A stretch of DNA of 53,962 nucleotides from Deltaproteobacteria bacterium (GTDB taxonomy: Bacteria > Desulfobacterota > Desulfobulbia > Desulfobulbales > S012-135). A program made the position numbers and the translations under genes. The first letter of the stretch is position 1. Every line of letters begins with the position of its first letter. Under the pieces are notes generated by a model. The model was not told the DNA's origin, made no database searches, and saw only the letters and a program-made list of their open reading frames with translations. Of this stretch, positions 33-47,794 are shown in pieces. Location of the stretch: positions 1 to 53,962 of the forward strand of contig WFOD01000015.1 of NCBI GenBank assembly GCA_015488275.1, in the 5' to 3' direction.

Positions 33-1157
33 ATGCCCGGCGGCATGGATGACGCGGACAACGCGGCCGGCTTCCCAGAAACAGATGAAGAACGAAAAGG
101 GGAAGCGGAACAAGAAGTAGAGCAGGAAGAAATCCTTGAAATCGACGACGATCAGCAGATCGTCCTGGCTGACGAATCCTCTGATGAGGACGAAGACGAT
201 GCCGATGAGATCATCGAAATCGATGACGACCAACAGGTCGCCCCGGTGGCCGAGGACGGGGAAAGCCAGCGTCCGCGCAATCTCTTCGACGCCCTGGCCG
301 AATACCTTGATCCTGAGCAGGCGCTTACTGACGAGACGCAAGACACGCTTGACGAAACCGAGGAGGAGTATCTCGCCAAGCTCCTTTCCCGCTTCACGCC
401 GCGGTTCATCGCTATTCCGGCCGGTCGCTACCGCGTGGGCAGCGACCGGCCGGGCCCGTTCGAGCGGGCTGCCGAATGGGTGGAGCTACCTGCCTTCCAC
501 ATCGGGCAAACGCCAGTCACCAACGACCTTTTCGACCTCTTCGTGCGGGAGACCGGCTACATCACCCAGGCGGAAGAAGAAGGTTTTGCCATGGTTTTTC
601 ACGGCAGGTTTCAAGAAGCGCACACTTCTGGGGGACGCCGTGTCTTGCGCCTCGGCGGCGGACGGCAGATGACGCGGGTGGCCGGTGCAGACTGGCGCCA
701 TCCTGAGGGGCCCCAGAGCTCGATCATCGGCCGGCACGATCATCCCGTGGTGCAGGTGAGCCGCCGCGACGCGCTCGCCTTTGCCGCCTGGGCGGGCAAA
801 CGCTTACCATCAGAAGAGGAATGGGAGGCCGCCATCCGCGGCCCCCAGGCCCTTCCCTATCCTTGGGGGGAAACATGGCGGGACGACACAGCCACGTTAG
901 AGTCCTCGCTTACCGGCTCCACCACGCCGGTCACCGCCCACCATCCCCACGGGGCGAGCCCCTTTGGTGTCTTGGACGGCATTGGCAACGTTTATGAATG
1001 GACAGGATCGTTGTGGCGCGCCGCTGGCGGTCAGCGCGTCCTGGCCATCCTCAAGGGCGGCGCCTGGGTCACTCCGCCGCCCATAGCCGCTTGGCACCGA
1101 CTCGTGGAAGACGAAAATTTCCGCGCCAACACCATAGGGTTCCGCTGCGCGGTATGA
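33..1157 (+). CDS. FGE/SUMF1-sulfatase-domain protein with hyper-acidic repeated N-terminal region
   Basis: The C-terminal ~250 aa carry formylglycine-generating-enzyme family hallmarks (IPAGRYRVGSD, HPVVQVSRRDALAFAAWAGKRLPSEEEWE, GNVYEWTG, LKGGAW, FRCA). ATG 33 follows GAGGAGG, but the frame stays open to nt 3 (..PPDEEEA), so the gene may start upstream of the window. Confidence 0.8.
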   Translation: MPGGMDDADNAAGFPETDEERKGEAEQEVEQEEILEIDDDQQIVLADESSDEDEDDADEIIEIDDDQQVAPVAEDGESQRPRNLFDALAEYLDPEQALTDETQDTLDETEEEYLAKLLSRFTPRFIAIPAGRYRVGSDRPGPFERAAEWVELPAFHIGQTPVTNDLFDLFVRETGYITQAEEEGFAMVFHGRFQEAHTSGGRRVLRLGGGRQMTRVAGADWRHPEGPQSSIIGRHDHPVVQVSRRDALAFAAWAGKRLPSEEEWEAAIRGPQALPYPWGETWRDDTATLESSLTGSTTPVTAHHPHGASPFGVLDGIGNVYEWTGSLWRAAGGQRVLAILKGGAWVTPPPIAAWHRLVEDENFRANTIGFRCAV

Positions 1158-1256
1158 ACCTTCATGGTTTTCCAACTTCTTTGTTTGTGATGTTGCCCGG
1201 GCTTTGGGCAACGGGTGGTGGACACAATCATTCGGAGTTGCTCCGTCATATTTGTG

Positions 1257-1292
1257 GGGGCAAATCACCCTGCAAGGTGGGGCAATCACCCC
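1257..1292 (+). promoter_or_regulatory. Tandem direct repeat GGGGCAA(A)TCACCC x2, candidate upstream activator site
   Basis: ggggcaaatcaccc (1257-1270) and ggggcaatcacccc (1279-1292) are each preceded by gtg(g). They lie about 100-130 nt upstream of the sigma-54-like element at 1389. Confidence 0.3.
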
Positions 1293-1388
1293 TCTCCCGC
1301 CAAGGCCCCCAGAGGACAGCCGCAGATAACGGATGATAACTCCTCCAAATCAGGCTCTCTTTTCCACGCCTGGGACAAAACACTCAAT

Positions 1389-1404
1389 TGGCATAAAAAA
1401 TGCT
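1389..1404 (+). promoter_or_regulatory. Candidate sigma-54 (-24/-12) promoter for the giant cytochrome gene
   Basis: TGGCATaaaaaaTGCT has GG and GC separated by 10 nt, as in the TGGCACG-N4-TTGC consensus. It lies 238 nt upstream of ATG 1642, and rpoN is present in the window. Confidence 0.4.
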
Positions 1405-1641
1405 TAAACGGGGACTGTCATAATTGACCGCTTCGGCCGGTTTTCGTGAGGAACGCATTGAGGGACCCCCTGCTGGCCAATAAAAGGACGGCCGGCGGCC
1501 CTGGCTTGCCGGTCCGGCAAAGGCGGTGGCGGACGTTTGTTCGCCAATGCCTGCGACCAAATATAGGGCGGGGCGGAAAGAGGAAAAGGCGAAACGGGGA
1601 GGGCCCGTTTCCGGCACTTCGGTTTGGAGAGGGTTTGAAAG

Positions 1642-4600
1642 ATGGGTAAATCGGGCTGGATCGCGGGAGTGTTCGTGGCGGGTGCGGTGTTGTCGGCGAC
1701 GCTGGCGCAGGCGTCGTTTTTGAATGCGCCGCACAACGAGGCAAACAATCTGACGTGTAAGAGTTGTCACGAGTACCCATTCGATTCGTGGCCAGGATAC
1801 GTCCCGGATCCGACGAATCCGGACGACACGGTGAAGAACTTCATCTGTCTCCGCTGCCACAACGCCGCGAACCCGAACCCAGCCTATCCCAACGCCCCTG
1901 GAAAAAATCTTCATTCCAGCCAATCGTTGCAGGGAAACCACCAGAACTGGACAACACAGTGCGTGGACTGTCACGATCCGCATTTCCAGGCCCAGCTCCA
2001 ATACTTCCAGACCGATCCCGCTCAGCTCTATCTCGTCACCGGCTCCTACCTGAACGTCAGCGTGGACACCACGACCACGCCGCCGACCTCCACGATCACC
2101 TATTCCCTGCAATCAAGCGCCGCCAACTGGAGCAATCCTGCGACGTGGCCGGCGAAAACAGAGGCGGGCCGGGGCCTGATTCTGGTGGCGGACACGGCGA
2201 ACCCCTATGACACCTTCGAAGTCGTCGCCGCCGACGCCACCACCATCACCGTGACCGGCGATCTTTCTCAGGTCACCCAGGGCGCCAGCTTCGGCCTCAT
2301 CTACGGGCAATTGGTCCGTTCCAAAGTCCAAGTGCCCGCGACCCTGGGCAGCGGCGAGAACACGACGAAATTCTTCAACCCGTTCGGTGGGTTTACCAAT
2401 ACCACAACGCCGGACGGCATCTGCCAGGTGTGCCATACGGCGACCCTGCACTGGCGGAGCGACGGGACCCTGGCGGACCACAACATCGGCAGCAAATGCA
2501 CCGGTTGCCATACCGCGGCCTCAGGGTTCAAGGCGAATTTCCCGAACCATACGTGGCTGTTGAAGGGAGGAACCACCTGCGAGGCGTGTCATGACCCGAA
2601 TGGAACGGCGGATATCGTCGCCGAGATCCACAAGGGCAAATGCGCGGACTGCCATAACGTGCCCAATTACGCCTCGCTGCGCACCGGGGTGAACGGCGAC
2701 GCCACGCTGCACGGCCCGGTGGGGCAAGGGAACACTTCGACCTGTACGGTCTGTCATGATCCCACGGTGTACCCGGCCTCGACCTTCCACCATGCGACGG
2801 TCAACGCCCAGAACGGCAACTGCGCCTTCTGTCACAGCGGCGCCACGGCGGCTGATCACACCACAATGGTGGCCGATTACGTGAACTGCGCCAATTGCCA
2901 TGCGGCGAACGTGGGGAGCGTGTCGGGCGCTCCGGTGGATCCGGCGAACAACCGGGTACATGACGCTTGCACCACCTGCCACAAGACTGACGGCAGCCTG
3001 AAGGCGCTTGCCGACCTGACGCGCGGGATCGTGGTGGCGATGCCGGCAGGAGGAACGGCGTCCAACGACGGCGGCGGCGACTGCTCGGCCTGCCACGGCG
3101 AGTACTTCCCGCAGCATACCCACCACTTCGCTGCCACCAACGACGTGAGCTTTGATCCGACGGTGGATACCTCGCAGCCGGGTATGCAGCCGTGTTCGGA
3201 CTGCCACCGCGACTACGACAGTATCAACGGCACCACCCTTGGGTTCTCAACCTTCACCCAGATTCTATGGGAGCACGACACCGATGGCGTGAAGGACGGC
3301 TCGACCAACACCTGTGACAACTGCCACAACTACGACGGCTCCAAATCAGCCCCCCTTGCCGATGTGCAGAACGCCATTGGCTCGGGCAACCCGGCGACCT
3401 GCGCCACCTGTCATACGGACAAGGTGCCCAACGTCTCCCACGGCGGACATCCGGACACCGACTTCGGCTGGGCGGGCAACTGCATCGACTGCCACGACAC
3501 CGATGCGGACCCGGCGACCAAGCCGGCGGTGATCTCGGTGATCCACGGCAACAACTGCGCCACCTGCCACGTGTCGCCCTCCACCGGCGACTACACCCGC
3601 AGGGCGGGCGATCCGGCCAACGGCGTGGACGGTGACGCGACCCTGGTGGACGGCGTGACCTGGACGCGCGCCAACTCCACCTGTCTGACCTGCCATCCGG
3701 ACGGCTCCACCCAGACCGGCCGGGCGACCATCCATCACGACTCGAAGAGCGGGTATGCTGCGGCGGGCAACTGCGCGGCCTGTCACACCTCCACCGGCCA
3801 CGAGGGTGACCACTCGGCCCGTGTGGCCCTGTACGCCAACTGCGCCAACTGCCATACCGGCACCGAGGGCGCGGCCAACGGCATGGTGGTGGATGCGGCC
3901 AACGCCAGGAAGCACGACGACTGCGTGACCTGCCACAAGACCGACGGCAGCCTGAAGACGCTCGCCGATCTGACCCGCGGGATCGTCACCGCCATGCCGG
4001 CGGGCGGCGGCGACTGCTCGGCCTGCCACGGCGAGTACTTCCCGAACCACCAGAACATCGACCACGCCACCAGCCGGGTGACGGTGAGCGCCAACTGCGC
4101 CAACTGCCACGACGCGGTGGCCGGCGGCACGGCGCCGGACGCCATCACCCCGCCGTTCACCGCCACGGGTGAGGCGCACGCCACGGCGGGATGTGCGACC
4201 TGTCACCAGGCGAACGGCGCCTTGGTGGCGCCCACGGCCACGGCTCCGGGTATCGCCGCCGGCGGCGGCGACTGCGAGACCTGCCACGGCGCCTACTTCC
4301 CGCAGCACCAGGCCGCCAACCATACGGCGAAGATCGCGGACACCGCGAACTGCAACACCTGCCATACCGCGACCGCAGGCACGGCGACCGGCGCGCCGGT
4401 CTCGAACACCGACCCGATGGTGCACGACGGTTGCGCCACCTGCCACGACACCACAACAGGCCTGCTCCTGTCGGTGAGCGCGGCCAACGATCCGAACACT
4501 GCGGCGTCGGTGAGCGCCATGACGGCCGGTGACTGCAACACCTGCCACGGCGCCTACTTCCCGAGCCACCAGAACGCGGACCATACGACGCGGGTGATGG

Positions 4601-7443
4601 CGAGCGCCAACTGCGCCAACTGCCACGACGCAGTGGCCGGCGGCACGGCGCCGGACGCCATCAGCACGCCGTTCACTGCGGCGGGCGAGGTGCACGCGCT
4701 CTCCGGCTGCGCCACCTGCCACAACACGACCAACGGCGCGCTGCTGGCAGCCTACGGCAAAGCGGTGGCGATCACGGTCGGCGACTGCGAGACTTGCCAC
4801 GGCCAGTACTTCCCGCAGCACCAGAGTCCGGACCATTCGGCCAAGGTTGCTGGAGTGACGCCGTGTATTGACTGCCACACCGCCACCGCGGGCACGGCCA
4901 CCGGCATCCCGACCTCGGCCACGGACGCCAAGGTGCACGACGGTTGCGCCACTTGCCACAACACGACCACTGGGCTTTTGCTGTCGCAGGCGGCGGCCAA
5001 CGTCAACGGCTACCTGACCTATGGCACGGCAATGGCGGCGGGCGACTGCTCGACCTGCCACGGCAACTACTTTGACCACCACGTGCACGGGACCACGGGC
5101 GGATACGTGAGCCACGACGTGGCCTTTAACGCCACACTCGATCTTGGACAGGCGGATTCGCAGCCGTGCGCGAACTGTCACAACGACGCCGGGCTCGCCT
5201 CACCGCTCTCCACCTGGGATGCGATCAAGACCGAGCACGCCACCGTGGGTGGCGCGGCGCAGGCGAGCGCGTGCGCCACGTGCCACTTCTACGCCACCAA
5301 CGGCAACCAGTCCGGCGATCCAGACACGCCGCCTCTGACCACGGTGCAGTCCACGATCGCCACCGGCACGGGCGTTCACTGCCTGACCTGCCACACGCCT
5401 AAAGCCGCGCCAGCCACGCACGGCGGACATCCGACGGACTTCGGCAAGTCGGCGGTGTGCACCACCTGCCATACCGGCGCCAACGTGGTGGCGGACATCC
5501 ACAACAACAACTGTGCAAACTGCCACAACGGCACGCCGAGCGCGAGCACGGAGAAGGTGGGCGACCGCGGTCTGGGTGACGCCACCCTGGCCAACGGCAC
5601 CGCGGCGTCGAACAACTGGGCCAACGTCAACTGCCTGACCTGCCACGGCGCGGGATACATGGAGGTGGTGACCGCAGAGGGCGCGGGCGGCAACCTGAGC
5701 GTGACGACCTACGGTGGCAAGCACCACCTGAACGCCCACGCCCAGGGCGGTGACTGCGACTGGTGCCACGACGATCCGCGGCGGGCGCCGGCCACCGACT
5801 GGGAGAGCACCTTCGGCGTCTCCGGCCCGGCAAGCCTGCCCAAGCAGCTCGCCTGCATCGAGTGCCACGTCCAGGGCGGCTATAACAACCAGGCCAGCGG
5901 CCTGCAGATCAACGAGCTGGCCTACCAGTGGTCCAACGGCAACCCGAACAGCGGCTATCTGACCGGGCTGCAGACGGTGAAGACGATCCACAGCATCACC
6001 TCCACCTCCGGCCAGCCGATCCAGGTGTACAACTATGGCATCTGCCTCGGCTGTCACAACGACACCCAGAAGGGCCGGCCGGTGAACGTGTACCACGCGC
6101 GGCCGGTGGCTGCTGACATGCACCTGAGCGGTCAGGACACGGCGGACAAGTCCAACGGCGGCGACGAGATCTGGAGCCACACCCAGTACGCGCAGTTGCA
6201 CGATCAGTTGCCGTGGCCGAACACCTTCAAACGGTTCGGCGACGGGGTGTGGGACGCGGCCTCGGGTGGTATCGCTGACCTGAAGACCGCCTACGGCAAG
6301 CGGTACGATACGGGCTCGAAACCGGGCAAGAACTGGAAGAACAACTTCAACAAGCCAGGCGCGCCGTCGGCGCCGTACAACCAGACGGTGACCATCCCGT
6401 GCAACAGCAACACCAACGACTGGGAGGGCCAGTGCGGCCAGGTCGGTTCGGCCAACTCGGTGCAGGTGCCCTACTTCAGTGACATCGCGCCTCCGGGACC
6501 CTTCGGGCCGACGGCGGTGAGCGACTCGTACACGGTGAACATCAACAGCAGCAACAACTCGCTGGCGGTGATGGGCAACGACTCGGGTTCGGGCATCAGC
6601 CTGCAGTCGGTGGGCGCCGCCTCCCACGGCACCACGGCCATCAGCGGCAACAACGTCCTCTACACGCCGACCGCGGGCTACACCGGCGCCGACTCGTTCT
6701 CCTACACCATCGTTGATTCGTCGAACCAGACGGCCTCGGCCACGGTGTCGATCACCGTGGTCGATCCCAGCGCCAACCAGCCGCCGGCCTTCGGCCAGGC
6801 GAGCTACACCCTGGCCAACGCGACGGAGAACAGCGCCTACAGTGTCTCCATCGCCGGCTACGCCACCGATCCGGAGGGTGATCCCATCAGCTACTCCATG
6901 TCGGGCGGCACCTGCGCCTGGGCCTCGGTGACCGCTGACGGCACGGTCTCTGGCACGCCGGGCACGGCCGACGTGGGAAGCTGCACCATCACCGCGGTGG
7001 CCACGGCCACGGGTGGCAGCGATACCGCGACCCTCAACATCACGGTGGACGCCGCCGGTGCCGGCTGGCCGCCCAACCCGAGCTGGTCTGGCAACATCAC
7101 CCAGCGGACCGACAAGACTTCGTACTGGGACCGCTCCCGCGATCCGGACCGGCTGCGGCTCTACATCCGGGTCGACAACGAGGGCACGCCGACCATGCGG
7201 CTGCGCGACGCCAGTGGCAACAACGTGGATATCGCCTGCACCGACGACGGAGCGCCGGACTGGCGGTGCACCCTGGAGGACAACAACCTCTACAACGCCG
7301 GCTACTCCAACACCATCGTGGTCTTCACCGGCGCCAACCTGGGCGACGGGTCCTGGCTGACCTACACGATCAACGACTGGGCGAACACCCAGGACCCGCT
7401 CTGCCCAGACTCTGATCCCGGCTGCTCCGGCAACAACAACTGA
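1642..7443 (+). CDS. Giant secreted multiheme c-type cytochrome (43 CxxCH motifs) with C-terminal cadherin-like and Ig-like domains
   Basis: 1,933-aa ORF starting at an ATG downstream of GGAGAGG. It has a signal peptide (MGKSGWIAGVFVAGAVLSATLAQA/SF). I counted 43 CxxCH motifs between about nt 1758 and 6060. The non-heme C-terminus has a cadherin-like repeat (about 6514-6765, ..YTPTAGYTGADSFSYTIVDSSNQTASATVSITV) and a He_PIG-like Ig repeat (about 6780-7050, ..ATDPEGDPISYSMSGG..VTADGTVSGTPG..). Confidence 0.95.
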   Translation: MGKSGWIAGVFVAGAVLSATLAQASFLNAPHNEANNLTCKSCHEYPFDSWPGYVPDPTNPDDTVKNFICLRCHNAANPNPAYPNAPGKNLHSSQSLQGNHQNWTTQCVDCHDPHFQAQLQYFQTDPAQLYLVTGSYLNVSVDTTTTPPTSTITYSLQSSAANWSNPATWPAKTEAGRGLILVADTANPYDTFEVVAADATTITVTGDLSQVTQGASFGLIYGQLVRSKVQVPATLGSGENTTKFFNPFGGFTNTTTPDGICQVCHTATLHWRSDGTLADHNIGSKCTGCHTAASGFKANFPNHTWLLKGGTTCEACHDPNGTADIVAEIHKGKCADCHNVPNYASLRTGVNGDATLHGPVGQGNTSTCTVCHDPTVYPASTFHHATVNAQNGNCAFCHSGATAADHTTMVADYVNCANCHAANVGSVSGAPVDPANNRVHDACTTCHKTDGSLKALADLTRGIVVAMPAGGTASNDGGGDCSACHGEYFPQHTHHFAATNDVSFDPTVDTSQPGMQPCSDCHRDYDSINGTTLGFSTFTQILWEHDTDGVKDGSTNTCDNCHNYDGSKSAPLADVQNAIGSGNPATCATCHTDKVPNVSHGGHPDTDFGWAGNCIDCHDTDADPATKPAVISVIHGNNCATCHVSPSTGDYTRRAGDPANGVDGDATLVDGVTWTRANSTCLTCHPDGSTQTGRATIHHDSKSGYAAAGNCAACHTSTGHEGDHSARVALYANCANCHTGTEGAANGMVVDAANARKHDDCVTCHKTDGSLKTLADLTRGIVTAMPAGGGDCSACHGEYFPNHQNIDHATSRVTVSANCANCHDAVAGGTAPDAITPPFTATGEAHATAGCATCHQANGALVAPTATAPGIAAGGGDCETCHGAYFPQHQAANHTAKIADTANCNTCHTATAGTATGAPVSNTDPMVHDGCATCHDTTTGLLLSVSAANDPNTAASVSAMTAGDCNTCHGAYFPSHQNADHTTRVMASANCANCHDAVAGGTAPDAISTPFTAAGEVHALSGCATCHNTTNGALLAAYGKAVAITVGDCETCHGQYFPQHQSPDHSAKVAGVTPCIDCHTATAGTATGIPTSATDAKVHDGCATCHNTTTGLLLSQAAANVNGYLTYGTAMAAGDCSTCHGNYFDHHVHGTTGGYVSHDVAFNATLDLGQADSQPCANCHNDAGLASPLSTWDAIKTEHATVGGAAQASACATCHFYATNGNQSGDPDTPPLTTVQSTIATGTGVHCLTCHTPKAAPATHGGHPTDFGKSAVCTTCHTGANVVADIHNNNCANCHNGTPSASTEKVGDRGLGDATLANGTAASNNWANVNCLTCHGAGYMEVVTAEGAGGNLSVTTYGGKHHLNAHAQGGDCDWCHDDPRRAPATDWESTFGVSGPASLPKQLACIECHVQGGYNNQASGLQINELAYQWSNGNPNSGYLTGLQTVKTIHSITSTSGQPIQVYNYGICLGCHNDTQKGRPVNVYHARPVAADMHLSGQDTADKSNGGDEIWSHTQYAQLHDQLPWPNTFKRFGDGVWDAASGGIADLKTAYGKRYDTGSKPGKNWKNNFNKPGAPSAPYNQTVTIPCNSNTNDWEGQCGQVGSANSVQVPYFSDIAPPGPFGPTAVSDSYTVNINSSNNSLAVMGNDSGSGISLQSVGAASHGTTAISGNNVLYTPTAGYTGADSFSYTIVDSSNQTASATVSITVVDPSANQPPAFGQASYTLANATENSAYSVSIAGYATDPEGDPISYSMSGGTCAWASVTADGTVSGTPGTADVGSCTITAVATATGGSDTATLNITVDAAGAGWPPNPSWSGNITQRTDKTSYWDRSRDPDRLRLYIRVDNEGTPTMRLRDASGNNVDIACTDDGAPDWRCTLEDNNLYNAGYSNTIVVFTGANLGDGSWLTYTINDWANTQDPLCPDSDPGCSGNNN
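2877..3135 (+). repeat. Intragenic 3-heme module, dispersed copy 1 (CANCH..HDxCxTCHKTDGSLKxLADLTRGIV..GDCSACHGEYFP)
   Basis: Visually about 85% identical at DNA level to 3826-4083, e.g. tgccacaagactgacggcagcctgaagg (2977..) versus tgccacaagaccgacggcagcctgaaga (3934..). Confidence 0.8.
3826..4083 (+). repeat. Intragenic 3-heme module, dispersed copy 2
   Basis: Paralogous to 2877-3135. It shares the string ggcgactgctcggcctgccacggcgagtacttcccg with 3074-3109. Confidence 0.8.
4084..4602 (+). repeat. Intragenic tandem super-repeat, copy 1 (519 nt, 173 aa, 6 hemes)
   Basis: Starts gtgagcgccaactgcgccaactgccacgacgcggtggccggcggcacggcgccggacgcc. The next copy starts 519 nt later with near-identical sequence. 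Confidence 0.85.
4603..5121 (+). repeat. Intragenic tandem super-repeat, copy 2
   Basis: Starts gcgagcgccaactgcgccaactgccacgacgcagtggccggcggcacggcgccggacgcc. GDCxxCHGxYF module borders recur at 4009, 4267, 4528, 4780 and 5041 (spacing 252-261 nt). Confidence 0.85.
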
Positions 7444-7462
7444 AAGACGGGATCAAACCAAG

Positions 7463-7578
7463 CCGTATCTGGTCACAGGGCACCCCATCTGCGGCGTCAT
7501 CGGCACGCTTGCGTAGCTCCCAGTACGCGGCGCGTGCCTCTTCCTTGCATCTGGGGCGCCCTGCAACCAGATACCCGG
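7463..7578. repeat. Inverted pair of GGTCAC-RGGG family repeats (about 28-nt arms, about 55-nt spacer)
   Basis: Left arm ccgtatctggtcacagggcaccccatctg (7463-7491). The right arm catctggggcgccctgcaaccagatacccgg (7548-7578) is its imperfect reverse complement. The spacer holds a nested ggcacgc/gcgtgcc pair. Confidence 0.75.
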
Positions 7579-7607
7579 TCCGCGAGGTCGCGACTTCGGC
7601 ATACGAA

Positions 7608-7630
7608 GGAGCACCCCCCTGACCAGTTAC
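7608..7630 (-). repeat. GGTCAC-RGGG family repeat, degenerate copy
   Basis: ggagcacccccctgaccagttac has the reverse complement gtaactggtcaggggggtgctcc. Confidence 0.5.
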
Positions 7631-7708
7631 ACCAAGCCGGGCGGCCTGATGCAAGCGGGCCGACCAAAGGGCAAGAGCCAGGGCTGTTGGTGACGGCGAC
7701 AGCCTGAA

Positions 7709-9298
<1,590 letters not shown>

Positions 9299-9450
9299 GA
9301 CCACCTCGTGCGACAGGGACCGCCTCCCTTTGCGGCCATGCGCCAGCCGGGGGGAGGGGAAGAAACGCCCGATGGACGGAACATCCATCCTTTCATCATA
9401 GCACGCCCGTCGCGGCGGGTGATAGGAATTTGCTCTCGCCAGTCCAGCGC

Positions 9451-9487
9451 GGGACAGGGGAGGGAACAGAGGGAGAGGAGGGAGGGG
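9451..9487. repeat. Polypurine (plus strand) / polypyrimidine (minus strand) tract
   Basis: gggacaggggagggaacagagggagaggagggagggg lies just downstream of the aroB stop on the transcribed minus strand. Confidence 0.8.
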
Positions 9488-9502
9488 CGTGGGCTCTGCG
9501 GT

Positions 9503-10579
9503 CTATCTCCCAAGGACCGTATCGAGCGCGGCGGCGTCCACCGCATCGGTCATGAAGACTTCGCCAATGGCGCGCGGCAGCACGAAAACCGGCCGGCCGG
9601 AAACCGTTTTTTTATCGGTGAGCAAGAAACGGCGGAGCACTGCAGGATCGTAGCCAGGAGGAATCGCTGTCGGCAGGCCGTAGGCAGCAAGCAGGGCGAT
9701 CAACCGGTCGCGATCCCCAGGCGGCAACACGCCCATGAGCGCGGCCAGGCGGGCCACGGCCGCCATGCCGATGGCCACGGCCATGCCGTGCGCCAACCGG
9801 TAGCCCGAGGCGGCCTCCACCGCATGGCCAATGGTGTGGCCAAAGTTGAGGATGCGCCGGACATCTCCCTCCCGCTCATCCTGCGCCACCACCTCGGCCT
9901 TGATGGCGCACGACCGGGCAATGATCGTCTCCAGGGTCTTGGGATCGAGGCCCAGGACCGCCTGGCGGTGGCTCTCGAGATAGGCGAAGAAATCAGGATC
10001 GCGGATCACCCCGTACTTGATGACCTCGGCAAGCCCCCCCAGCAATTCGGCACGCGGCAGAGAGGCCAGAACGCGGGGATCGATATACACCGCCCGCGGC
10101 TGATAGAAAGCGCCCACCAAGTTTTTACCCTCAGGAATATCCACGCCCGTCTTGCCGCCCACCGAGCTGTCCACCTGGGCCAACAAGGTGGTGGGCAGCT
10201 GGGCAAACGCAATACCCCGCATATAGATCGCGGCCACAAAGCCGGTGATATCGCCGGTCACGCCGCCGCCCAGGGCCAGTAAGCCATCCTTGCGGTCAAA
10301 ACCGCGGACCGCCAGTTGCCGGCAGAGATGCTCTACCGTGCCAAGGTGCTTCTGTTCCTCGCCAGCGGCAAAGGACAAAAGCTCCACGGCCAATCCCGCC
10401 TGCCGGCATGAGGCCAGCACCTGCTCGGCAAACAGCTCGGCCACCCGGTCGTCGGCGATCACGGCGTAACGCTTGGCCAGCGGCCGGGCCCCAAGCAGGG
10501 GACCAACCTCATCGAGGATCCCCGGCCGGATGACAATGGGGTACGAGCGCTCTCCCAGGCCAACGGTTAACTCCTGCAT
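9503..10579 (-). CDS. aroB: 3-dehydroquinate synthase
   Basis: Full-length match to the AroB family (GGGVTGDITGF, NFGHTIGHAVE). ATG 10579 is preceded by GAGGAAGG. Confidence 0.9.
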   Translation of the reverse strand: MQELTVGLGERSYPIVIRPGILDEVGPLLGARPLAKRYAVIADDRVAELFAEQVLASCRQAGLAVELLSFAAGEEQKHLGTVEHLCRQLAVRGFDRKDGLLALGGGVTGDITGFVAAIYMRGIAFAQLPTTLLAQVDSSVGGKTGVDIPEGKNLVGAFYQPRAVYIDPRVLASLPRAELLGGLAEVIKYGVIRDPDFFAYLESHRQAVLGLDPKTLETIIARSCAIKAEVVAQDEREGDVRRILNFGHTIGHAVEAASGYRLAHGMAVAIGMAAVARLAALMGVLPPGDRDRLIALLAAYGLPTAIPPGYDPAVLRRFLLTDKKTVSGRPVFVLPRAIGEVFMTDAVDAAALDTVLGR

Positions 10580-10614
10580 GATCCTTCCTCAAAAAACCTG
10601 TAACCAGATACCCT

Positions 10615-10652
10615 CAAAACACAAAAGGGGCACCGGCAAAACCGGCACCCCT
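10615..10652 (-). terminator. Possible intrinsic terminator after sat
   Basis: On the minus strand, ggggtgccgg-tttt-gccggtgcccc forms an imperfect stem (4+4 bp with a 2x2 internal mismatch) followed by ttttgtgttttg. Confidence 0.4.
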
Positions 10653-10686
10653 GCTCGATACAAAGCGACACGCAGTCGGCTGGCGC

Positions 10687-11967
10687 TTACTTCATCGCGT
10701 CGCCTGAAGCCGCGCCCTGCATCTTGATCTCGACCTTTTCGGTCAGGTTCTCGTAGTAGTCGCGCAGGATGGCGAGCACCTCGTCGCGGCCGAAGTGGTC
10801 CGGGATCTCGGCGCCCTCGGACAGGGCCTTGCGCAGCTTGGTGCCGGAGAGGATGACCCGGTCTTCCTTGGTGTGCGGACAGGTCCGCAGCGAAGCCATG
10901 CCGTCGCACTTGTAGCAGTAGAAGGTCCAGTCGATCTTCAGCGGCTCGCAGAGCAGGCGCTTGCCCGGATCGGCGGGCTGCGGGATGCGGTCGAAGATCT
11001 CCTGCGCCTCGAACAGGCCGTAGAAATCGCCGACACCGGCGTGGTCACGGCCAATGATCATCCGGTTGACGCCGTAGTTCTGACGGAAGGTGGCGTGGAG
11101 CAGGGCCTCCCGCGGACCAGCGTAGCGCATGTCGAGCGGGTAGCCAGCCTGGATGACGTTGTCCTTGACAAAGTAGTGCTCGATCAGGGTATCAATACAC
11201 TTGACCCGCACGTCGGCCGGGATGTCGCCCGGCTTCAGGGAGCCGATGAGGGAGTGGATCAGCACGCCGTCGCAGACCTCGATGGCGATCTTGGCCAGGA
11301 ACTCATGCGACCGGTGCATCGGGTTGCGGAGCTGGAGGGCGGCGACGTTCTTCCAGCCGCGCTCCTCGAACATGGCCCGGACCTCGGTCGGGGTCTTGTA
11401 GATGCCCTTGAACTTGGTGGGGAAGTCACCCTCGGACAGGACCTTGACCGGGCCGGCGAGGTTGAACTCCTTCTGGCCCATCACCATCTGGACGCCGGGA
11501 TGATCGTCCAGGGCGACCTTCCAGAATTTGTCGTCAGCCGAATCCTCGCCCTCGCCCTTGAAGACCTTCTCACATTCCCACTTCTTGTCGGCCTCGGTCA
11601 TCTCATACTTCTCCGAGACCTTCATGGTGGCGTAGATCTCACCCTCATATTCGAGCGCGATCTCGTCGCCAACGTTGATCGACTCAGCGTCCTCGCGGGA
11701 GCAATCGCAGGTCACGGGCACCGGCCAGAAGGTGCCGTCGGCCAGGGTGAAGTTCTCACACACGCTCTTCCAGTCGGCGCGGGTCATAAAGCCGTCGAGG
11801 GGGCTGAACCCGCCGATGCCGAGCATGATGAGGTCGCCCTTGACCCGGGAGCTGATCTGGATCTTCTTCAGAGTCTGGGCCTTTTCCTTTTCGGCTTCCA
11901 GTTCGTTGCCGTGCAACAGGCAGCAAACCAGGCCCTTACCTCCATGCGGGGGAACGAGTTTGGACAT
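10687..11967 (-). CDS. sat: Sulfate adenylyltransferase (ATP sulfurylase)
   Basis: ATP-sulfurylase motifs [11 protein letters not shown] and [10 protein letters not shown] are present. ATG 11967 ([10 protein letters not shown]) is preceded by AAGGAGAA. The track start 12024 is an unsupported extension. Confidence 0.92.
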
Positions 11968-12062
11968 GACGCTTCTCCTTTTGTGCTGAATTTTGGTGCG
12001 GTTGGGACCAGAGGCATCGCTCAAAAAAATGAACGACCATTCACCGAGGAAAACAAGCCTGG

Positions 12063-12091
12063 ACTGTATCTATAGTACCCAACCTTGTCAA
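12063..12091 (-). promoter_or_regulatory. Candidate sigma-70 promoter for sat
   Basis: The minus strand reads TTGACA-17 nt-TACAGT (-35 at 12086-12091, -10 at 12063-12068), about 90 nt upstream of the sat ATG. Confidence 0.4.
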
Positions 12092-12127
12092 GGATTTTTT
12101 TCTCTCCGGAGAGCGGCAAAGACCGGC

Positions 12128-12168
12128 GGGGAGGAAGAGGGAGGGAAGGAAGGAAGGAAGGAAGAAGG
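12128..12168. repeat. 41-nt pure polypurine tract with GGAA repeats
   Basis: ggggaggaagagggagggaaggaaggaaggaaggaagaagg. It is pyrimidine-only on the minus strand, between the flaG stop and the sat promoter. Confidence 0.85.
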
Positions 12169-12256
12169 CGCACCTCTAGCGGCCCGCCCCCGCAGACGCG
12201 CGGCCGCGGCGGCAGAATCGGCTTCCAGTCTTGGAATCAGCCCGTTACCGCGCCCG

Positions 12257-12673
12257 TCAGGCGCTGGAATCGAAAAGCAACCCCACCAGGTCTTCGAGCT
12301 TCTTCTTCAGCTCCAGCAGGTCTTCGGGCGGAATTTGCCGGATCACTTCCCCGCTCTGCCGTTCCGAGACCTGGACCACGATGGCGCCGGCCTTTTTGTC
12401 CTGCTGGATGGCCAGTTTCAGCGAGCTGCCCAGGGATTCGAGGCGCTGCTGGGCCTCTTCCACCATCTTGGTGACCTGCTCCCGGTCGAGCCGCTGCCGG
12501 GCCGCCCGCTCGCCCCGGCCGTGCAGGGCCTTATCGTCCAGGGCCGCAGTGTTCGCGTCGGACGATTCCTTCACCGGCGCCACCTGCGGCCGGGTCCGGT
12601 CTTCAACCGCCACGGTGGGGGCCACGGGCATTCCAAAACTCTTGACATCAGCGTTGGTGTTGACATCGACCAT
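12257..12673 (-). CDS. flaG: Flagellar protein FlaG
   Basis: The C-terminal region (LKLAIQQDKKAGAIVVQVSERQSGEVIRQIPPEDLLEL) is typical of the FlaG family. ATG 12673 is preceded by GGGAGG. Confidence 0.75.
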   Translation of the reverse strand: MVDVNTNADVKSFGMPVAPTVAVEDRTRPQVAPVKESSDANTAALDDKALHGRGERAARQRLDREQVTKMVEEAQQRLESLGSSLKLAIQQDKKAGAIVVQVSERQSGEVIRQIPPEDLLELKKKLEDLVGLLFDSSA

Positions 12674-12694
12674 AACCGTACCTCCCTGTACCGG

Positions 12695-13075
12695 TCATGT
12701 GGTTGCGTGGAGGTGCCGAGGCGGCGGCGCGCCGGCAGTAGGCTGCCCCCTGTAACGGCGCAGGCACCGGCGGCCGCGCCGCAGGCCGGCCAGCCGCGCC
12801 TGGAGCCCAGTCCGGGTTTGCGCCGCCCTGCGGCTCAAATCCTGCGCCCCCCGCGCCGCTTGCAAAAAGAGGTCGAGCACCCGCCGGCGCCGGGCCTCGT
12901 CCTCTAGCGAACGGCTGGCATCGATCGTGGCCAAGCACCGTTGCACCCGGCGCAGGACCTGCTCCATCTCACCGCGCCACCGCCACAGATCATCAAGTCG
13001 GCCAGCGGCCAAGTCCCGCCGCTGCCGCTCCTGAGCGGCGAGGAGTGCGCAAAGGGCCCGTTCGAGTTCCTGCAC
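12695..13075 (-). CDS. Hypothetical coiled-coil protein, possible flagellar export chaperone (FlgN/FliT-like)
   Basis: GTG 13075 is preceded by AAGGAGAG and sits 17 nt after the fliS stop. The product is Arg/Leu/Glu-rich and helical, in a flagellar operon. The longer track ORF (to 13267) would overlap fliS. Confidence 0.4.
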   Translation of the reverse strand: MQELERALCALLAAQERQRRDLAAGRLDDLWRWRGEMEQVLRRVQRCLATIDASRSLEDEARRRRVLDLFLQAARGAQDLSRRAAQTRTGLQARLAGLRRGRRCLRRYRGQPTAGAPPPRHLHATT

Positions 13076-13091
13076 AAGGCTCTCCTTTGCC

Positions 13092-13568
13092 TCAAATGGA
13101 AACGGACAGGCCGCCGGCCGTCCGCTCCGGCGGCGAGGTGGTCTTGGCAGCCACTGGCTGGGAAACCCCTCGCTCCTCCACGGAAAAGCCATGCTCACGC
13201 ATGGCGGTCTGTTCCCAGATCTCTTTGAGCTTTGCCAGATAACGGCGGGCCCGGCGGACGACCTCACCGTCGTTGTTCACCGCCACCTTTGGCAGCTCCA
13301 CCAAAATGGCCGAATACAGTCCCCGCAGGAACTCCGCCGCCTCAGAGGCATCTTCTTTCCGGATCGAGGCGTTCAGCTCGGTGACAATGGCGATGGCCCG
13401 CCCAAGGTTCTCGCCCCGCTTCACCGGATCGTGCTCCTCCACCCCCTCCAAGACCAAATCGAGGTGGATGAGCACCCGTTCGTACATCAGGTGGACGAGC
13501 TTGACCGGATGAATGGTCGCCAGCTTCTCGGTCTGGCGATAGATGTTCCGCGCCTGCACGGACGTCAT
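13092..13568 (-). CDS. fliS: Flagellar export chaperone FliS
   Basis: FliS-like core (YRQTEKLATIHPVKLVHLMYERVL..GRAIAIVTELNASI). ATG 13568 is preceded by GGAGGAA, 21 nt after the fliD stop. Confidence 0.85.
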   Translation of the reverse strand: MTSVQARNIYRQTEKLATIHPVKLVHLMYERVLIHLDLVLEGVEEHDPVKRGENLGRAIAIVTELNASIRKEDASEAAEFLRGLYSAILVELPKVAVNNDGEVVRRARRYLAKLKEIWEQTAMREHGFSVEERGVSQPVAAKTTSPPERTAGGLSVSI

Positions 13569-13588
13569 GTACGGTTCCTCCGCTGGCG

Positions 13589-15310: not shown

Positions 15311-15363
15311 GATCGGACCTCTCGACAGCAAAGACACTTTACCTGCTCATCGTCCATTGTACC

Positions 15364-15391
15364 TTATCGGCCCTCTGCGCCGGCGACTTGA
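15364..15391 (-). promoter_or_regulatory. Candidate sigma-28 (FliA) promoter for fliD-fliS-flaG
   Basis: The minus strand reads tCAAGt-N15-GCCGATAA (perfect -10 box at 15364-15371), about 55 nt upstream of the fliD ATG. Confidence 0.5.
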
Positions 15392-15479
15392 GAGAAAAAA
15401 GCCTCTTTCCCCATCCTGCCAAACCGCACCAATCCCCTCTCCCCGGCATTGAGTTTTCCGCCCGCCTCGTTTATCGTAG

Positions 15480-20359: not shown

Positions 20360-20381
20360 CAGCCCGTTTTGCAACGGGCTG
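20360..20381. repeat. 22-nt palindromic hairpin element (family archetype) CAGCCCGTT-TTGC-AACGGGCTG
   Basis: Perfect 9-bp stem with a 4-nt loop. It exactly fills the gap between the convergent stop codons at 20357-20359 and 20382-20384. Confidence 0.9.
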
Positions 20382-43516: not shown

Positions 43517-44350
43517 TCAAAAATGCATGGTCACCTTGTTGGTGATCAAATAGACCTGATCGATGGTGGCGGCCTGGCCCACGGCCGCACCGTCGACCGG
43601 CCCCTCGGCGGCCGGCGGTTCGTTTCCGTCGGTGGTCATATAGCCGAAATGGGCCTCGTACAGAAGGTTGCCCAGCACGCGGTAGGCGATACCCACGTTG
43701 TACTCCCAGGCCTTTTTCTTCGCATCCCGCTCACCGTCGGCAAGGGCGGCATAGCCCACGGCCCAGTGTACGCCCACCTTGTCGCCCAGGGCAAGATCGC
43801 CGTACAGGCCATAGGTGCGCAGGGGCTGCTCCTCAGCGCCGTTGGCCAGCAGGCTCGCGCCGCTGCGGGGCAGGATGAGCAGCGGCATCCCCTTCTCCCC
43901 GCCGCTCCCAGGATTGGCGTCGTATAGATAAAGCATCCCAAGCCGGGCCGACGAAGTAGCCACGGAGAGGGCGACATCCGTGCGCTCGCCCAACCGGCCA
44001 ACGGACGCCGAGAGATCGGCTCCCGCCAGCGGGCGGAGGGTGACGCCAACCTCGCCCCCCAGGCCCTCCGCCGCCTGGCCGGCAACCGCTGGCGGCCCCA
44101 GCGGGTCTTGCCCGGCCCCAGCGCCAGCCCGGTTCGGACCAAGCCAGAGCACGGCCGCTTTGTCATCCGCGCCCAACAGATCCACCACGCCCAGGACCGT
44201 TGGCGATCCGGCCGGCATCCACGACGGCTCCAGCCGCGGCAAGGCCGGCACAGGCGGCAACAACGCCATCCCGCCCTCGGCCGCCATTGCCGGGGCGGCA
44301 AGAGCCAACAAGACGCTGGCGAGTACGATATTTTTAAGGATCTGGTTCAT
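43517..44350 (-). CDS. Small outer-membrane beta-barrel protein
   Basis: ATG 44350 (MNQILKNIVLASVLLALAAPAMA signal peptide), with C-terminal ..ITNKVTMHF. The 157-aa upstream extension in the track is not credible. Confidence 0.65.
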   Translation of the reverse strand: MNQILKNIVLASVLLALAAPAMAAEGGMALLPPVPALPRLEPSWMPAGSPTVLGVVDLLGADDKAAVLWLGPNRAGAGAGQDPLGPPAVAGQAAEGLGGEVGVTLRPLAGADLSASVGRLGERTDVALSVATSSARLGMLYLYDANPGSGGEKGMPLLILPRSGASLLANGAEEQPLRTYGLYGDLALGDKVGVHWAVGYAALADGERDAKKKAWEYNVGIAYRVLGNLLYEAHFGYMTTDGNEPPAAEGPVDGAAVGQAATIDQVYLITNKVTMHF

Positions 44351-44480
44351 GGGCAATACAGGTTTAAATTTTTGTACTCTCCATTCTATGCCGGAACCCA
44401 GCGGACTTGTCAAGCCTTTTCCCCCATTTTTTTCCGGCCGCGGATTGACGGCTGGCAAAAGACCGGCTAGTAGTAACCGC

Positions 44481-45741: not shown

Positions 45742-46193
45742 GACGCAGCAGGGGCGAGGTGCTCGCCCAGCAGCCGGGCCAGGGCCTCGGCCGTATCGGC
45801 CTGGAGGAGCGCGGCCCGCAGCTCCGCCCGACGCAGCAGGCCGGCAAGGGTGGAGAGCGCGTCGAGATAGGCGCGGCCCGGCTCTTCCGGCGCGAGCAAG
45901 ACGAAAAAGAGGTGGACCGGCCGGTTGTCCACCGCCTCGAAGGGAATCCCCCGCGGGCTGCGGCCAAAAAAGACGACGATTTCAGAAAGGCCGGGCAGTT
46001 TGGCGTGCGGCAAGGCAATGCCGTCGCCAATGCCCGTGGAGCCGAGCTGCTCCCGCCCGATCAGGGCATCGAGCACCGTATCGGCCGCCACCCCCAACTC
46101 GGCCGCCGCTGCCTGGGCCAGCTCGGCCAGCACGTCCCGTTTGCTCTCCGCCTCGAGGGCGGCAATGATCCGGTGGGGGGCGATGCGGTCCAT
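45738..46193 (-). CDS. ptsN: PTS IIA-Ntr nitrogen regulatory protein
   Basis: The GIGDGIALPHAKL active-site His region is present, immediately downstream of rpoN (TGATG overlap). Confidence 0.88.
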   Translation of the reverse strand: MDRIAPHRIIAALEAESKRDVLAELAQAAAAELGVAADTVLDALIGREQLGSTGIGDGIALPHAKLPGLSEIVVFFGRSPRGIPFEAVDNRPVHLFFVLLAPEEPGRAYLDALSTLAGLLRRAELRAALLQADTAEALARLLGEHLAPAAS

Positions 46194-47641
46194 CAGCGAA
46201 GTTTGGGCTTTTTACGCAATTTGGAGGGCAGGATGCCCATCTGCTCCCGGTACTTCGCCACGGTCCGCCGGGCGAGCTTGATCCCCTCCCGGTTGAAGAT
46301 GGCGGCGATGGCGCTATCGCTCAGCGGCTTTTCCGGGTCCTCCTCCTGCACGATCCGGCGGATGCGCTCCTTGATGGACAGCGAGGCCAGGGCCTCGCCG
46401 CCGTCCCGCCGCTCAATGGCTGAATTGAAAAAGAATTTGAGCTCAAAGGTGCCCTGGGGGGTATGGACGTACTTGTTGCTCGTCACCCGGCTGATGGTGG
46501 ACTCGTGCATGCCGATATCCTCGGCGATGTCGCGCAGGACCAAGGGCCGCAGGTGGGCAATGCCGTGCTCGAAAAAGGGCTTTTGGAACTTGACGATGGA
46601 CTCGACCACCCGGTAGATGGTGCGCTGCCGCTGGTGGATCGACTTGATAAGCCACTGGGCCGAACGGAGCTTTTCGGTGATGTACTCCCGGGTCGAGGCG
46701 TCGGCCCGCTCCCGTTCCTGGAGAATCTTACGGTAATAGCCACTGATCCGCAGCCGCGGCAGGCCGTCTTCGTTGAGCAGGATCACGTACTCATCGTCCA
46801 TCTTGTAAACGTACACGTCGGGCACGATGTAGTGCGGCTCTTCGTCTGAGTACTGGCGGCCGGGATGGGGATCAAGGCCGGTGATGACGTCGATCGCCGC
46901 CAGCACCTCCCGGCGGGAGGCCTTGGTCGCCCGGACGATGCCGGCGTAGTTCTTGCGCTCGAGAAGGCGCAGGTGATCGCGGACAATGACAGCGGCGAGC
47001 GAGTCGCCGAGTCCCAGGCGCTCGAGCTGGAGGAGCAGGCTCTCTTGCACGTTGCGCGCCCCGATGCCGGCCGGATCCATCTCTTGCACCACCCGCACGA
47101 GACGCGCCGCCGTCTCCTCGTCGCAGCCAGTGGCCGCGGCGATCTCTGGCGTGTCGATATCGAGAAAGCCGTCTTTATCGAGATTGCCGATAATGAACTC
47201 GCCGACTTCCTTTTCTTCGTCAGAGAGGTCGGAAAGGCTGAGCTGCCACTGGAGGTGAGAGGCCAGATCGGGCTTGCGGGTAAGGATATTGAGGCGGGAG
47301 GGAAACTCGGAATCATCGCCCGGACGGATCGAGGGCAGGGACTCGTATTCGTTGGCATAGTCGGTCCAGTCGATCTCCTGCATGGAGGACTCGCCGCCGC
47401 CGTCCTCCATCGACACCGCTGGCGTGGTCTCCGGCTCCGGCCTGGCCTCGGGCTCTTCGGCGGCTCCCCCCCCCTCCTCTTCCGGCGCTTCCTCGAGCAC
47501 CGGGTTGTGCTCCATTTCCTGCTGGATGGTCTCGGCCAGCTCGAGCCGCGAAAGCTGCAGCAGCTTGATCGCCTGCTGGAGCTGCGGCGTCATGACCAGC
47601 TGCTGGGTCAGCTTGACTTGTTGTCGGAGTTCAAGTGCCAT
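46193..47641 (-). CDS. rpoN: RNA polymerase sigma-54 factor
   Basis: MALELRQQVKLTQQLVMTPQLQQAIKLLQ N-terminus and RpoN box ARRTVAKYR. I prefer ATG 47641 over the 49-aa track extension. Confidence 0.95.
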   Translation of the reverse strand: MALELRQQVKLTQQLVMTPQLQQAIKLLQLSRLELAETIQQEMEHNPVLEEAPEEEGGGAAEEPEARPEPETTPAVSMEDGGGESSMQEIDWTDYANEYESLPSIRPGDDSEFPSRLNILTRKPDLASHLQWQLSLSDLSDEEKEVGEFIIGNLDKDGFLDIDTPEIAAATGCDEETAARLVRVVQEMDPAGIGARNVQESLLLQLERLGLGDSLAAVIVRDHLRLLERKNYAGIVRATKASRREVLAAIDVITGLDPHPGRQYSDEEPHYIVPDVYVYKMDDEYVILLNEDGLPRLRISGYYRKILQERERADASTREYITEKLRSAQWLIKSIHQRQRTIYRVVESIVKFQKPFFEHGIAHLRPLVLRDIAEDIGMHESTISRVTSNKYVHTPQGTFELKFFFNSAIERRDGGEALASLSIKERIRRIVQEEDPEKPLSDSAIAAIFNREGIKLARRTVAKYREQMGILPSKLRKKPKLR

Positions 47642-47731
47642 GCCAATCAGTATAGCAAGGTAGGCGGGGGTTCGCCAACTCCATCGTCGCGGTGGGGCAA
47701 AAATCCCCTGCGCCACGGCCCGGCGCGCACG

Positions 47732-47752
47732 CAGCCCGTTGCAAACGGACTG
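47732..47752. repeat. Hairpin element, inverted-orientation copy (cagcccgttgcaaacggactg)
   Basis: Matches the reverse complement of the archetype with a 1-nt deletion and 1 substitution. It lies between lptB and rpoN. Confidence 0.65.
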
Positions 47753-47794
47753 CCAGCGAAAAAGGCCGCGGCAAGCCGCAACGCACACCTGGGG

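Follow-up and report, generated by a model that had tools for sequence, protein, structure and literature searches.

A complete gene for a predicted secreted 43-heme cytochrome with an adhesin-like tail in an uncultured Desulfobulbia bacterium

The stretch of DNA analysed here (the window; 53,962 nucleotides, or 54 kb, of contig WFOD01000015.1, assembly GCA_015488275.1) carries a complete gene at 1642..7443 (+), whose 1,933 codons encode a predicted 43-heme c-type cytochrome. The original prediction, made from the letters alone, had described a single open reading frame (ORF) of 1,933 aa with a Sec signal peptide and 43 CxxCH heme-attachment motifs, all of which were borne out by a recount and a hydropathy scan; the giant 43-heme ORF is confirmed, and the gene is intact. 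The start ATG is the first codon past the upstream in-frame stop, and a Shine-Dalgarno-like element read from the sequence, GGAGAGGG (1626..1633, +), lies 8 nt 5' of it; the DNA visible 5' of the gene amounts to 1.6 kb. The GC content at third codon positions (GC3) is 0.87, matching the adjoining genes and the genome, and the long opposite-strand ORFs show a GC pattern typical of shadow frames. The mature protein would comprise 1,909 aa, with a mass of ~197 kDa as the apoprotein and ~224 kDa with hemes, and an isoelectric point of 5.3.

The translation holds exactly 43 CxxCH motifs, compared with an average of 0.23 and never more than 2 in 2,000 residue shuffles, and none of the variants CxxxCH, CxxxxCH and CxxCK occurs in its 1,933 aa. 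Of its 94 Cys residues, 86 lie inside the heme motifs, and the remaining eight are all found in the tail (aa 1587–1928), where they form four close pairs (1587/1598, 1758/1781, 1866/1876, and 1921/1928); this pairing is in keeping with an oxidising environment outside the cytoplasm. The last 461 residues, past the final heme motif at aa 1468, are heme-free. The protein has 55 His residues outside the motifs (54 of them before aa 1521) and 15 Met residues, and the spare His residues would be enough to provide a second axial ligand for each of the 43 predicted hemes. Profile searches for cytochrome c3/c7, paired CXXCH, cadherin-like and He_PIG domains all scored above cut-off, those in the heme region being Cytochrome_C7 (195.1 bits, cut-off 24.8), Cytochrom_c3_2 (99.4, cut-off 25), Paired_CXXCH_1 (54.1, cut-off 20.6) and Cytochrom_CIII (41.5, cut-off 22.9). 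The predicted export signal is a Sec type-I signal peptide (aa 1–24; 1642..1713, +) with cleavage at AQA|SF, called by reading the sequence and by the hydropathy scan, in which aa 4–28 (MGKSGWIAGVFVAGAVLSATLAQA|SF) formed the only hydrophobic segment of the whole protein, with no membrane segment at the C-terminus. There is no lipobox Cys, as aa 1–38 are free of Cys and the first Cys belongs to heme motif 1. Homologs share this layout, and a conserved [DN][AT]PHN motif starts 3–5 residues past their predicted cleavage sites. By its motifs, profile matches, export signal and ligand supply, the gene product is predicted to be a multiheme c-type cytochrome of class III (c7-c3 type).

The signal peptide is followed by an N-terminal module (aa 25–300; 1714..2541, +) in which five CxxCH motifs (aa 39, 69, 107, 261, and 286) flank a heme-free insert. 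Pfam covers only aa 33–118 of it (Cytochrom_c3_2), and the module recurs in ~90 retrieved homologs (89 domain matches of at least 250 aa), whose alignment shows invariant P, H, C, W, G and F positions. The order of elements after the signal peptide is [DN][AT]PHN, three CxxCH motifs, a ~135-aa beta insert (LYLVTG...GRGLILV...FGLIYGQL...), GICQVCH and the fifth CxxCH. The window copy is 37–70% identical to those of 23 family members and has every invariant column, on which basis we place the protein in a family of Desulfobulbia giant cytochromes that is defined here by this module. The module is also found in proteins with a total of five hemes, joined to large non-heme regions. AlphaFold2 modelled the module with a mean pLDDT (predicted local distance difference test score) of 58.8; its heme-binding parts were poorly modelled, while the strands of the insert at aa ~130–223 reached 85–96. 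The insert (aa 120–255; 1999..2406, +) is predicted to be a small closed beta-barrel, and it had no Pfam match and no fold match at E < 0.01 in the PDB, Foldseek giving generic small beta-barrels at E > 0.01.

The remaining 38 CxxCH motifs, spaced 18–63 residues apart, lie in a heme-repeat core (aa 301–1472; 2542..6057, +), where Pfam recognised Cytochrome_C7 in 17 stretches (195 bits), the MtrC/MtrF II/IV domain in eight (133.7 bits) and Paired_CXXCH in eight. A windowed phmmer self-comparison revealed 172-aa tandem units (aa 756–949 versus 926–1120, E 1e-60), together with ~85-aa triheme sub-units and super-repeats of 312 and 659 aa, from which the core is read as the product of nested internal duplications. 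In a sequence search of solved structures, the heme region had no match, and the cadherin-like part of the tail alone matched, weakly.

The original prediction of a heme-free tail of about 460 aa with a cadherin-like repeat, a He_PIG repeat and a Cys-containing terminal domain agrees with both Pfam and AlphaFold2. The tail begins with a linker (aa 1473–1617; 6058..6492, +) that contains the Cys pair 1587/1598, has no Pfam match and is largely disordered in the model (pLDDT < 50 at aa 1560–1616); its motif IPC...C.G...VP recurs at the C-terminal ends of the tail-less homologs P0006, P0035 and P0054. The next domain (aa 1618–1709; 6493..6768, +) is a Big_9/cadherin-like beta-sandwich according to Pfam, AlphaFold2 and Foldseek: at aa ~1623–1706 it matched Big_9 (80.7 bits, E 1.5e-22) and Cadherin_5 (43.4 bits, E 3e-11), its pLDDT was 90–96, and its Foldseek matches were tandem protocadherin and RTX-adhesin repeats (E 1e-8 to 1e-10). 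The usual calcium-binding DxDxDGD motif is degenerate in this domain (NDSGSGIS). It is followed by a He_PIG Ig-like domain (aa 1711–1804; 6772..7053, +) with the Cys pair 1758/1781, recognised at aa ~1720–1800 (E 2.7e-7; 31.4 bits, cut-off 24; pLDDT 83–96), whose nearest copies are in the tails of the paralogs P0011, P0012 and P0127. The last part of the tail (7054..7440, +) consists of a terminal beta-sandwich (aa 1805–1924) with the Cys pair 1866/1876, modelled as all-beta with a pLDDT of 74–86, and a C-terminal loop, PLCPDSDPGCSGNNN. Structure prediction yielded confident all-beta folds for the tail domains (pLDDT 74–96), and not for the heme-binding parts of the N-terminal module. The terminal region (aa 1805–1933) had no Pfam match, and its domain is rare, with eight matches among 1.84 billion representatives, three of them below 1e-10.

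Foldseek matched the model of the whole tail to tandem protocadherin, RTX-adhesin and S-layer arrays (E down to 7e-11), and the tail search returned adhesin-type proteins almost exclusively. A tandem-95/Big_9 repeat adhesin was rejected as a description of the protein, which has a single Big_9 domain and scored 37.6 with NF012211 (cut-off 90). In P0019, the terminal domain is internal and followed by Big_9, which argues that it is a module and not a sorting signal; its identification as PEP-CTERM, a type IX secretion C-terminal domain or a type I secretion signal was likewise rejected, as it lacks a transmembrane segment, occurs internally in P0019 and belongs to a protein whose heme attachment needs Sec export. 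The extreme C-terminus PLCPDSDPGCSGNNN (aa 1925–1933; 7414–7440, +) is near-identical to the end of an unrelated fragment, P0199 (NPLCPLADPSCSGSNN), and the C-terminus of P0127, ...SECNNN, also resembles it. This C-terminal Cys loop may be a small conserved disulfide loop or a terminal tag.

The host is assigned to an uncultured Desulfobulbia bacterium from its MutS, which shares 90% and 82% identity with the MutS of two uncultured relatives and 64–68% with that of Desulfobulbaceae, Desulfurivibrionaceae and Thiovibrio. Relatives of the cytochrome (146 in the database and 113 tblastn matches in GTDB representative genomes) come nearly all from metagenome-assembled genomes (MAGs) of uncultured Desulfobulbia, Desulfobulbaceae or Thermodesulfobacteriota, often with 10–20 loci per MAG; a record that is not a MAG, 'Desulfobacterota bacterium M19', has at least four paralog loci, and a literature search on this record and on Calx-beta combined with multiheme gave no match. 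The family is annotated automatically as 'cytochrome c3 family protein' or 'Ig-like domain-containing protein'. Among 104 homologs, the median number of hemes was 31 and the maximum 88, and 77 had an xPHN motif just past the signal peptide. Their tail domains included Big_9, Cadherin_5, He_PIG, Calx-beta, TSP3, beta-helix and FN3, among others. The architecture is typical of this large existing family, as 27 of the 104 homologs have at least 43 hemes and 39 have a heme-free tail of at least 450 aa. The sequence comparison makes the window protein a typical member of a large, uncharacterised and well-populated paralogous family in Desulfobulbia, with which it shares the N-terminal module after the signal peptide, the heme-repeat units and a variable adhesin-like tail. 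The nearest homolog, P0002, is 63% identical and also has 43 hemes, but it lacks a tail, while the combination of Big_9 and He_PIG in the tail is shared with P0011, P0012 and P0127. The window protein differs from the rest of the family in joining a P0002-type core to a tail that P0002 lacks and that ends in the very rare terminal domain. This combination of a P0002-type core with a tail nearest to those of P0011, P0012 and P0127 suggests that tails are exchanged among paralogs.

The cytochrome gene lies between an ORF with an FGE-sulfatase domain (1–1157, +), which is open at the start of the window and in which the domain is preceded by a strongly acidic stretch rich in D and E, and a convergent gene for a soluble PAS-HisKA-HATPase-REC hybrid histidine kinase (7709..9388, −). 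Both neighbours had been read correctly, as judged from Pfam and from the lack of a transmembrane segment in the kinase. A CPVC motif in the PAS domain of the kinase (9076–9087, −; kinase aa 105–108) may serve to sense metals or redox state. No exact copy of the FGE-like protein was on record, and the window genome is not among the GTDB representatives, so L081, the closest relative (MutS 90% identical), served as the reference for synteny; its sequence matches the window on both sides of the locus (window 92–1155 at 77% and 9513–15475 at 85%), with the same gene order of FGE-like, aroB, sat, flaG/fliS/fliD and mutS. At the corresponding site, between the FGE-like gene and aroB, L081 has 1.4 kb (1978–3420) encoding a 226-aa PEP-CTERM protein. 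The cytochrome and kinase genes are both absent there, so they are taken to form a variable island of 8.4 kb (1156..9512), and the co-inserted kinase may be regulatory. The FGE-like protein (666 aa in the L081 ortholog) was rejected as a maturation partner of the cytochrome, because its gene is conserved at the L081 site, where the cytochrome gene is absent. No tRNA-like or insertion-sequence features and no flanking direct repeats were found at the island edges, and the GC content and GC3 are genome-like. Near the edges (1434–1448 / 9581–9595), 15 nt match perfectly in inverted orientation, CGGCCGGTTTTCGTG / CACGAAAACCGGCCG; the right arm is inside the 3' end of aroB, and the match may be due to chance. 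A second indel in these conserved surroundings concerns a gene for a 993-aa MshE/T2SSE-type secretion ATPase in L081 (14231–17421), located between the amidase and gltD-like genes and absent at window ~20297–20404.

A candidate sigma-54 (−24/−12) element, TGGCATAAAAAATGCT (1389..1404, +; TGGCAT-N6-TGCT), lies ~240 nt 5' of the start codon, and the cytochrome gene may be driven by this promoter. It is the sole TGGCAY-N6-TGCW match on either strand of the window (0.54 expected per window), similar elements (TGGTAT-N5-TTGCA/T) lie 65–240 nt 5' of seven paralog genes in other genomes, and rpoN is encoded in the window (46193..47788); a search of 1100..1700 gave no sigma-70-like site. Housekeeping genes make up the rest of the window, including aroB, sat, fliS/fliD, mutS, amidase, ATP synthase, alaS, recA, rpoN and arginine-biosynthesis genes. 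None of the other ORFs in the 54 kb has more than one CxxCH, a second cytochrome is absent, and no ccm, porin or NHL genes were found there. The absence of a second cytochrome, ccm genes or a porin-cytochrome partner nearby, as noted originally, thus holds for the whole window, and the locus is not a porin-cytochrome cluster of the Pcc/Mtr/Ext type, having, in the 1.6 kb visible upstream and in the rest of the window, no adjacent gene for a barrel or a periplasmic multiheme cytochrome. Two adjoining genes ~35 kb from the cytochrome gene (41997–43430, −, and 43517–44821, −) show weak signs of encoding outer-membrane barrels (Alginate_exp, E 8e-7; Porin_4, E 6e-3); both adjoin a LolCDE-like ABC transporter and have no evident link to the cytochrome.

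The two nearest homologs, P0002 and P0003, have a different setting from the window gene, which lies in a housekeeping neighbourhood: each is encoded by the last gene of a conserved cluster (L001/L004 and L003/L009; L001 785–9513 and L003 1–9673) in the order 4-heme cytochrome, NHL lipoprotein, probable barrel, SurA-like chaperone, second NHL lipoprotein and 11-heme cytochrome. The barrel assignment concerns an 814–870-aa protein with a signal peptide and the ending ...LF, which is a probable outer-membrane barrel with relatives in 43 metagenome loci. In at least 20 long metagenome contigs (set L084–L124), the 4-heme cytochrome, NHL, barrel, NHL and 10–11-heme cytochrome genes keep this core order; most of these loci add a 5-heme cytochrome before the barrel and run on into a 13-heme cytochrome, and the SurA-like gene is present in only two. 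From its gene content, the cluster looks like a widespread porin-cytochrome-like conduit that is undescribed or little described. Most other paralogs, like the window gene, sit away from this cluster (~70 paralog loci examined), and the partner genes of the window protein are expected to lie elsewhere in the genome. The oddity of a partnerless orphan cytochrome, implied by the original prediction, is largely explained by this habit of the paralogs and by the location in an island that L081 lacks.

The ORF could in principle be an artefact or a pseudogene, in which collapsed or mis-joined repeats yield a spurious long reading frame. The gene is internally repetitive, and an independent short-read assembly, contig L080 (GCA_027076625.1), departs from the window 5' of position 2604, where L080 1–570 holds part of a CitMHS_2 transporter gene read from the opposite strand. 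Over the 4,863 bp of window 2604..7466, the same contig agrees with the window at 99.86% and without a single gap, and the window protein is collinear with P0002 (63% identity, 43 motifs) from residue 1 to ~1506 and with P0004 across the L080 breakpoint. This collinearity indicates that the switch to CitMHS_2 is probably a chimeric join in L080, which would also explain why the public protein P0001 is cut to 1,594 aa. Moreover, the internal repeats have diverged at DNA level, with identities of up to 83% over stretches of up to 139 nt, the 5.8 kb of the ORF contain no internal stops or frameshifts, all 86 motif Cys residues stay in register along it, and GC3 is genome-like. Because of the agreement with L080, the collinearity with P0002 and P0004 and the divergence of the repeats, we regard an assembly artefact as highly improbable.

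As for the role of the protein, we consider it probable, with considerable room for doubt, that the secreted giant cytochrome works as an electron wire made of a single polypeptide, on the outer surface or beyond it. A surface or extracellular conduit had been proposed originally, and it stands as the best-supported reading because of the MtrC/MtrF-type pentaheme domains, the adhesin-type, Cys-paired tail and the barrel/11-heme/NHL/SurA-like cluster of the nearest homologs, from which we infer the localisation. These same features make it unlikely that the protein is a periplasmic electron store or relay, whose 43 hemes would serve as an electron buffer or as a bridge between the inner and outer membranes and whose tail would serve protein-protein contacts: Big_9/cadherin-like and He_PIG domains are typical of extracellular adhesins, which were almost the only type of protein returned by the tail search, the pentaheme domains are those of the surface cytochromes MtrC and MtrF, orthologs are placed after a barrel and a periplasmic cytochrome in porin-cytochrome-like clusters, and an extended protein of ~224 kDa is hard to fit in the periplasm. 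A periplasmic protein would nevertheless agree with a Sec signal peptide unaccompanied by a lipobox, a sorting signal or adjoining secretion or porin genes, and with Cytochrome_C7 as the strongest Pfam match, given that poly-c7 repeat cytochromes such as GSU1996 are periplasmic. Intracellular electron storage is also among the known roles of multiheme cytochromes (PMC9769857). A variant of the extracellular reading is that the protein functions primarily in a redox-active matrix or in aggregation: it would be released and build up conductive extracellular material or junctions between cells, instead of being a fixed terminal reductase on the surface of the producer. This would suit its adhesin-like tail, the lack of an anchor of any kind and the presence of 10–20 paralogs per genome with differing tails, which suggest differing binding targets, and it has an analogy in the heme-rich material between the cells of anaerobic methanotrophic archaea (ANME) and sulfate-reducing bacteria (SRB), a heme-rich intercellular space and adhesin repertoires having been described for syntrophic SRB (PMC10553843). 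The sequence cannot separate such a matrix protein from a surface wire, and the conserved N-terminal module argues for a common docking partner on the cell; we rate release into a matrix as distinctly unlikely.

In the favoured reading of a surface electron wire, Sec would export the pre-protein to the periplasm, where a cytochrome-maturation system whose genes lie elsewhere would attach the hemes. The protein would then cross the outer membrane, as MtrC and OmcA are known to do, either by the type II secretion pathway or along with a porin-cytochrome conduit. The N-terminal module, with its five hemes and beta-barrel, would be the proximal end that takes electrons from a trans-outer-membrane conduit, and the 38-heme repeat core would conduct them over tens of nanometres, an estimate scaled from the ~1 nm that each heme spans in extended multiheme cytochromes. 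Attachment of the distal end to a mineral, a matrix polymer or a partner cell would be the task of the Big_9, He_PIG and terminal domains. As far as the sequence tells, electrons might flow in either direction.

Several observations weigh against a surface wire. The predicted protein is not a lipoprotein, unlike MtrC, OmcA and OmcB, and no C-terminal sorting signal (PEP-CTERM, LPXTG, GlyGly-CTERM and similar) was recognised in it. Genes for a porin, a periplasmic cytochrome, ccm and type II secretion are absent from the 52 kb downstream, with 1.6 kb visible upstream. The docking role given to the N-terminal module is a hypothesis, and the heme-binding parts of that module were modelled at low confidence. 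Furthermore, in Desulfovibrio ferrophilus, deletions of putative surface cytochromes left Fe(III) oxide reduction running, and the same study warns that cytochrome genes alone are no proof of extracellular electron transfer (PMC9769857). Relatives in the Desulfurivibrionaceae, for their part, couple sulfide oxidation to iron-oxide reduction with extracellular cytochromes (PMC12545173).

A more far-reaching proposal, which we put forward tentatively and think improbable, is that the N-terminal module is a previously undescribed universal docking or targeting unit that plugs interchangeable extracellular cargo into a dedicated NHL/barrel outer-membrane conduit. The types of cargo would be long heme wires, cadherin/Ig adhesins, and beta-helix, TSP3 and Calx-beta domains. 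If this were true, the uncultured Desulfobulbia lineage would possess a modular, plug-in form of extracellular electron transfer with 10–20 exchangeable cytochromes per genome, and members such as the window protein would enter and leave genomic islands and exchange their tails.

For electron transfer by uncultured sulfur- and metal-cycling bacteria to minerals, electrodes or partner cells, over nanometre-to-micrometre distances, giant multiheme cytochromes are the leading candidates. Such cytochromes, some of them fused to surface domains, have already been published, and the window gene adds a well-supported, full-length example in which a predicted heme wire is fused to adhesin domains, in a lineage with 10–20 paralogs per genome. 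The useful results are the N-terminal module that defines the family, the suggested exchange of tails among paralogs and the link between the nearest homologs and the widespread NHL/barrel/cytochrome cluster. Current ideas on extracellular electron transfer are not overturned by this gene, and no open question becomes testable from the window alone.

Among known systems, the outer cytochromes of the Shewanella MtrCAB complex and its relatives (MtrC/OmcA/MtrF) resemble the window protein in their II/IV-type pentaheme domains, found in eight stretches of the latter (PF22113, 133.7 bits), and in the place proposed for it, which is the outer end of a conduit across the outer membrane (PMC12133095 for MtrCAB). 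The window protein differs from them in having 43 hemes and not 10, in not being a lipoprotein, in its adhesin tail and in the lack of adjoining mtrA- or mtrB-like genes. Membership in the OmcA/MtrC family was rejected, as TIGR03507 scored 45.3 bits (cut-off 209.3) and the protein has no lipobox. A nanowire subunit of the OmcS/OmcE/OmcZ type was rejected as well, given the lack of a sequence match in Pfam, NCBIfam or the PDB and a single 43-heme chain in place of 4–8-heme subunits. The GSU1996-type poly-c7 'nanowire' cytochromes of Geobacter, which carry 12 hemes in four c7-like domains, are similar in their tandem c7-type triheme units (17 Cytochrome_C7 stretches and ~85-aa triheme sub-repeats in the window protein); unlike the window protein, they are small, periplasmic and tail-less, and no solved structure matched the window heme region by sequence.

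Within the Desulfobacterota, Desulfuromonas acetexigens has cytochromes with up to 86 heme motifs that are expressed on electrodes and iron oxides (PMC12133095), and these, like the window protein, are single-chain giant multiheme cytochromes, in their case tied to extracellular electron transfer. They belong to another class, Desulfuromonadia, and none appeared among the named matches of the homolog search, which was not a direct test of homology. The gene clusters DFE_0448–0451 and DFE_0461–0465 of D. ferrophilus mix multiheme cytochromes with NHL repeats (PMC9769857), as the P0002 and P0003 clusters mix NHL beta-propeller lipoproteins with several multiheme cytochromes, whereas the window has no such cluster. 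The ANME cytochromes MHC-A/B/C have 20–86 hemes and are fused to S-layer or pectin-lyase domains (PMC9012536), and OetF of syntrophic SRB carries a fibronectin domain (PMC10553843). No sequence relationship to the window protein was detected for either, and the window protein differs from them in its bacterial, diderm host, in lacking an S-layer domain and a C-terminal transmembrane helix, and in its heme modules and tail domains. What the ANME giants, OetF and the window protein have in common is a very long heme array combined with a non-heme surface or binding domain, and a proposed role in electron transport through or beyond the cell envelope.

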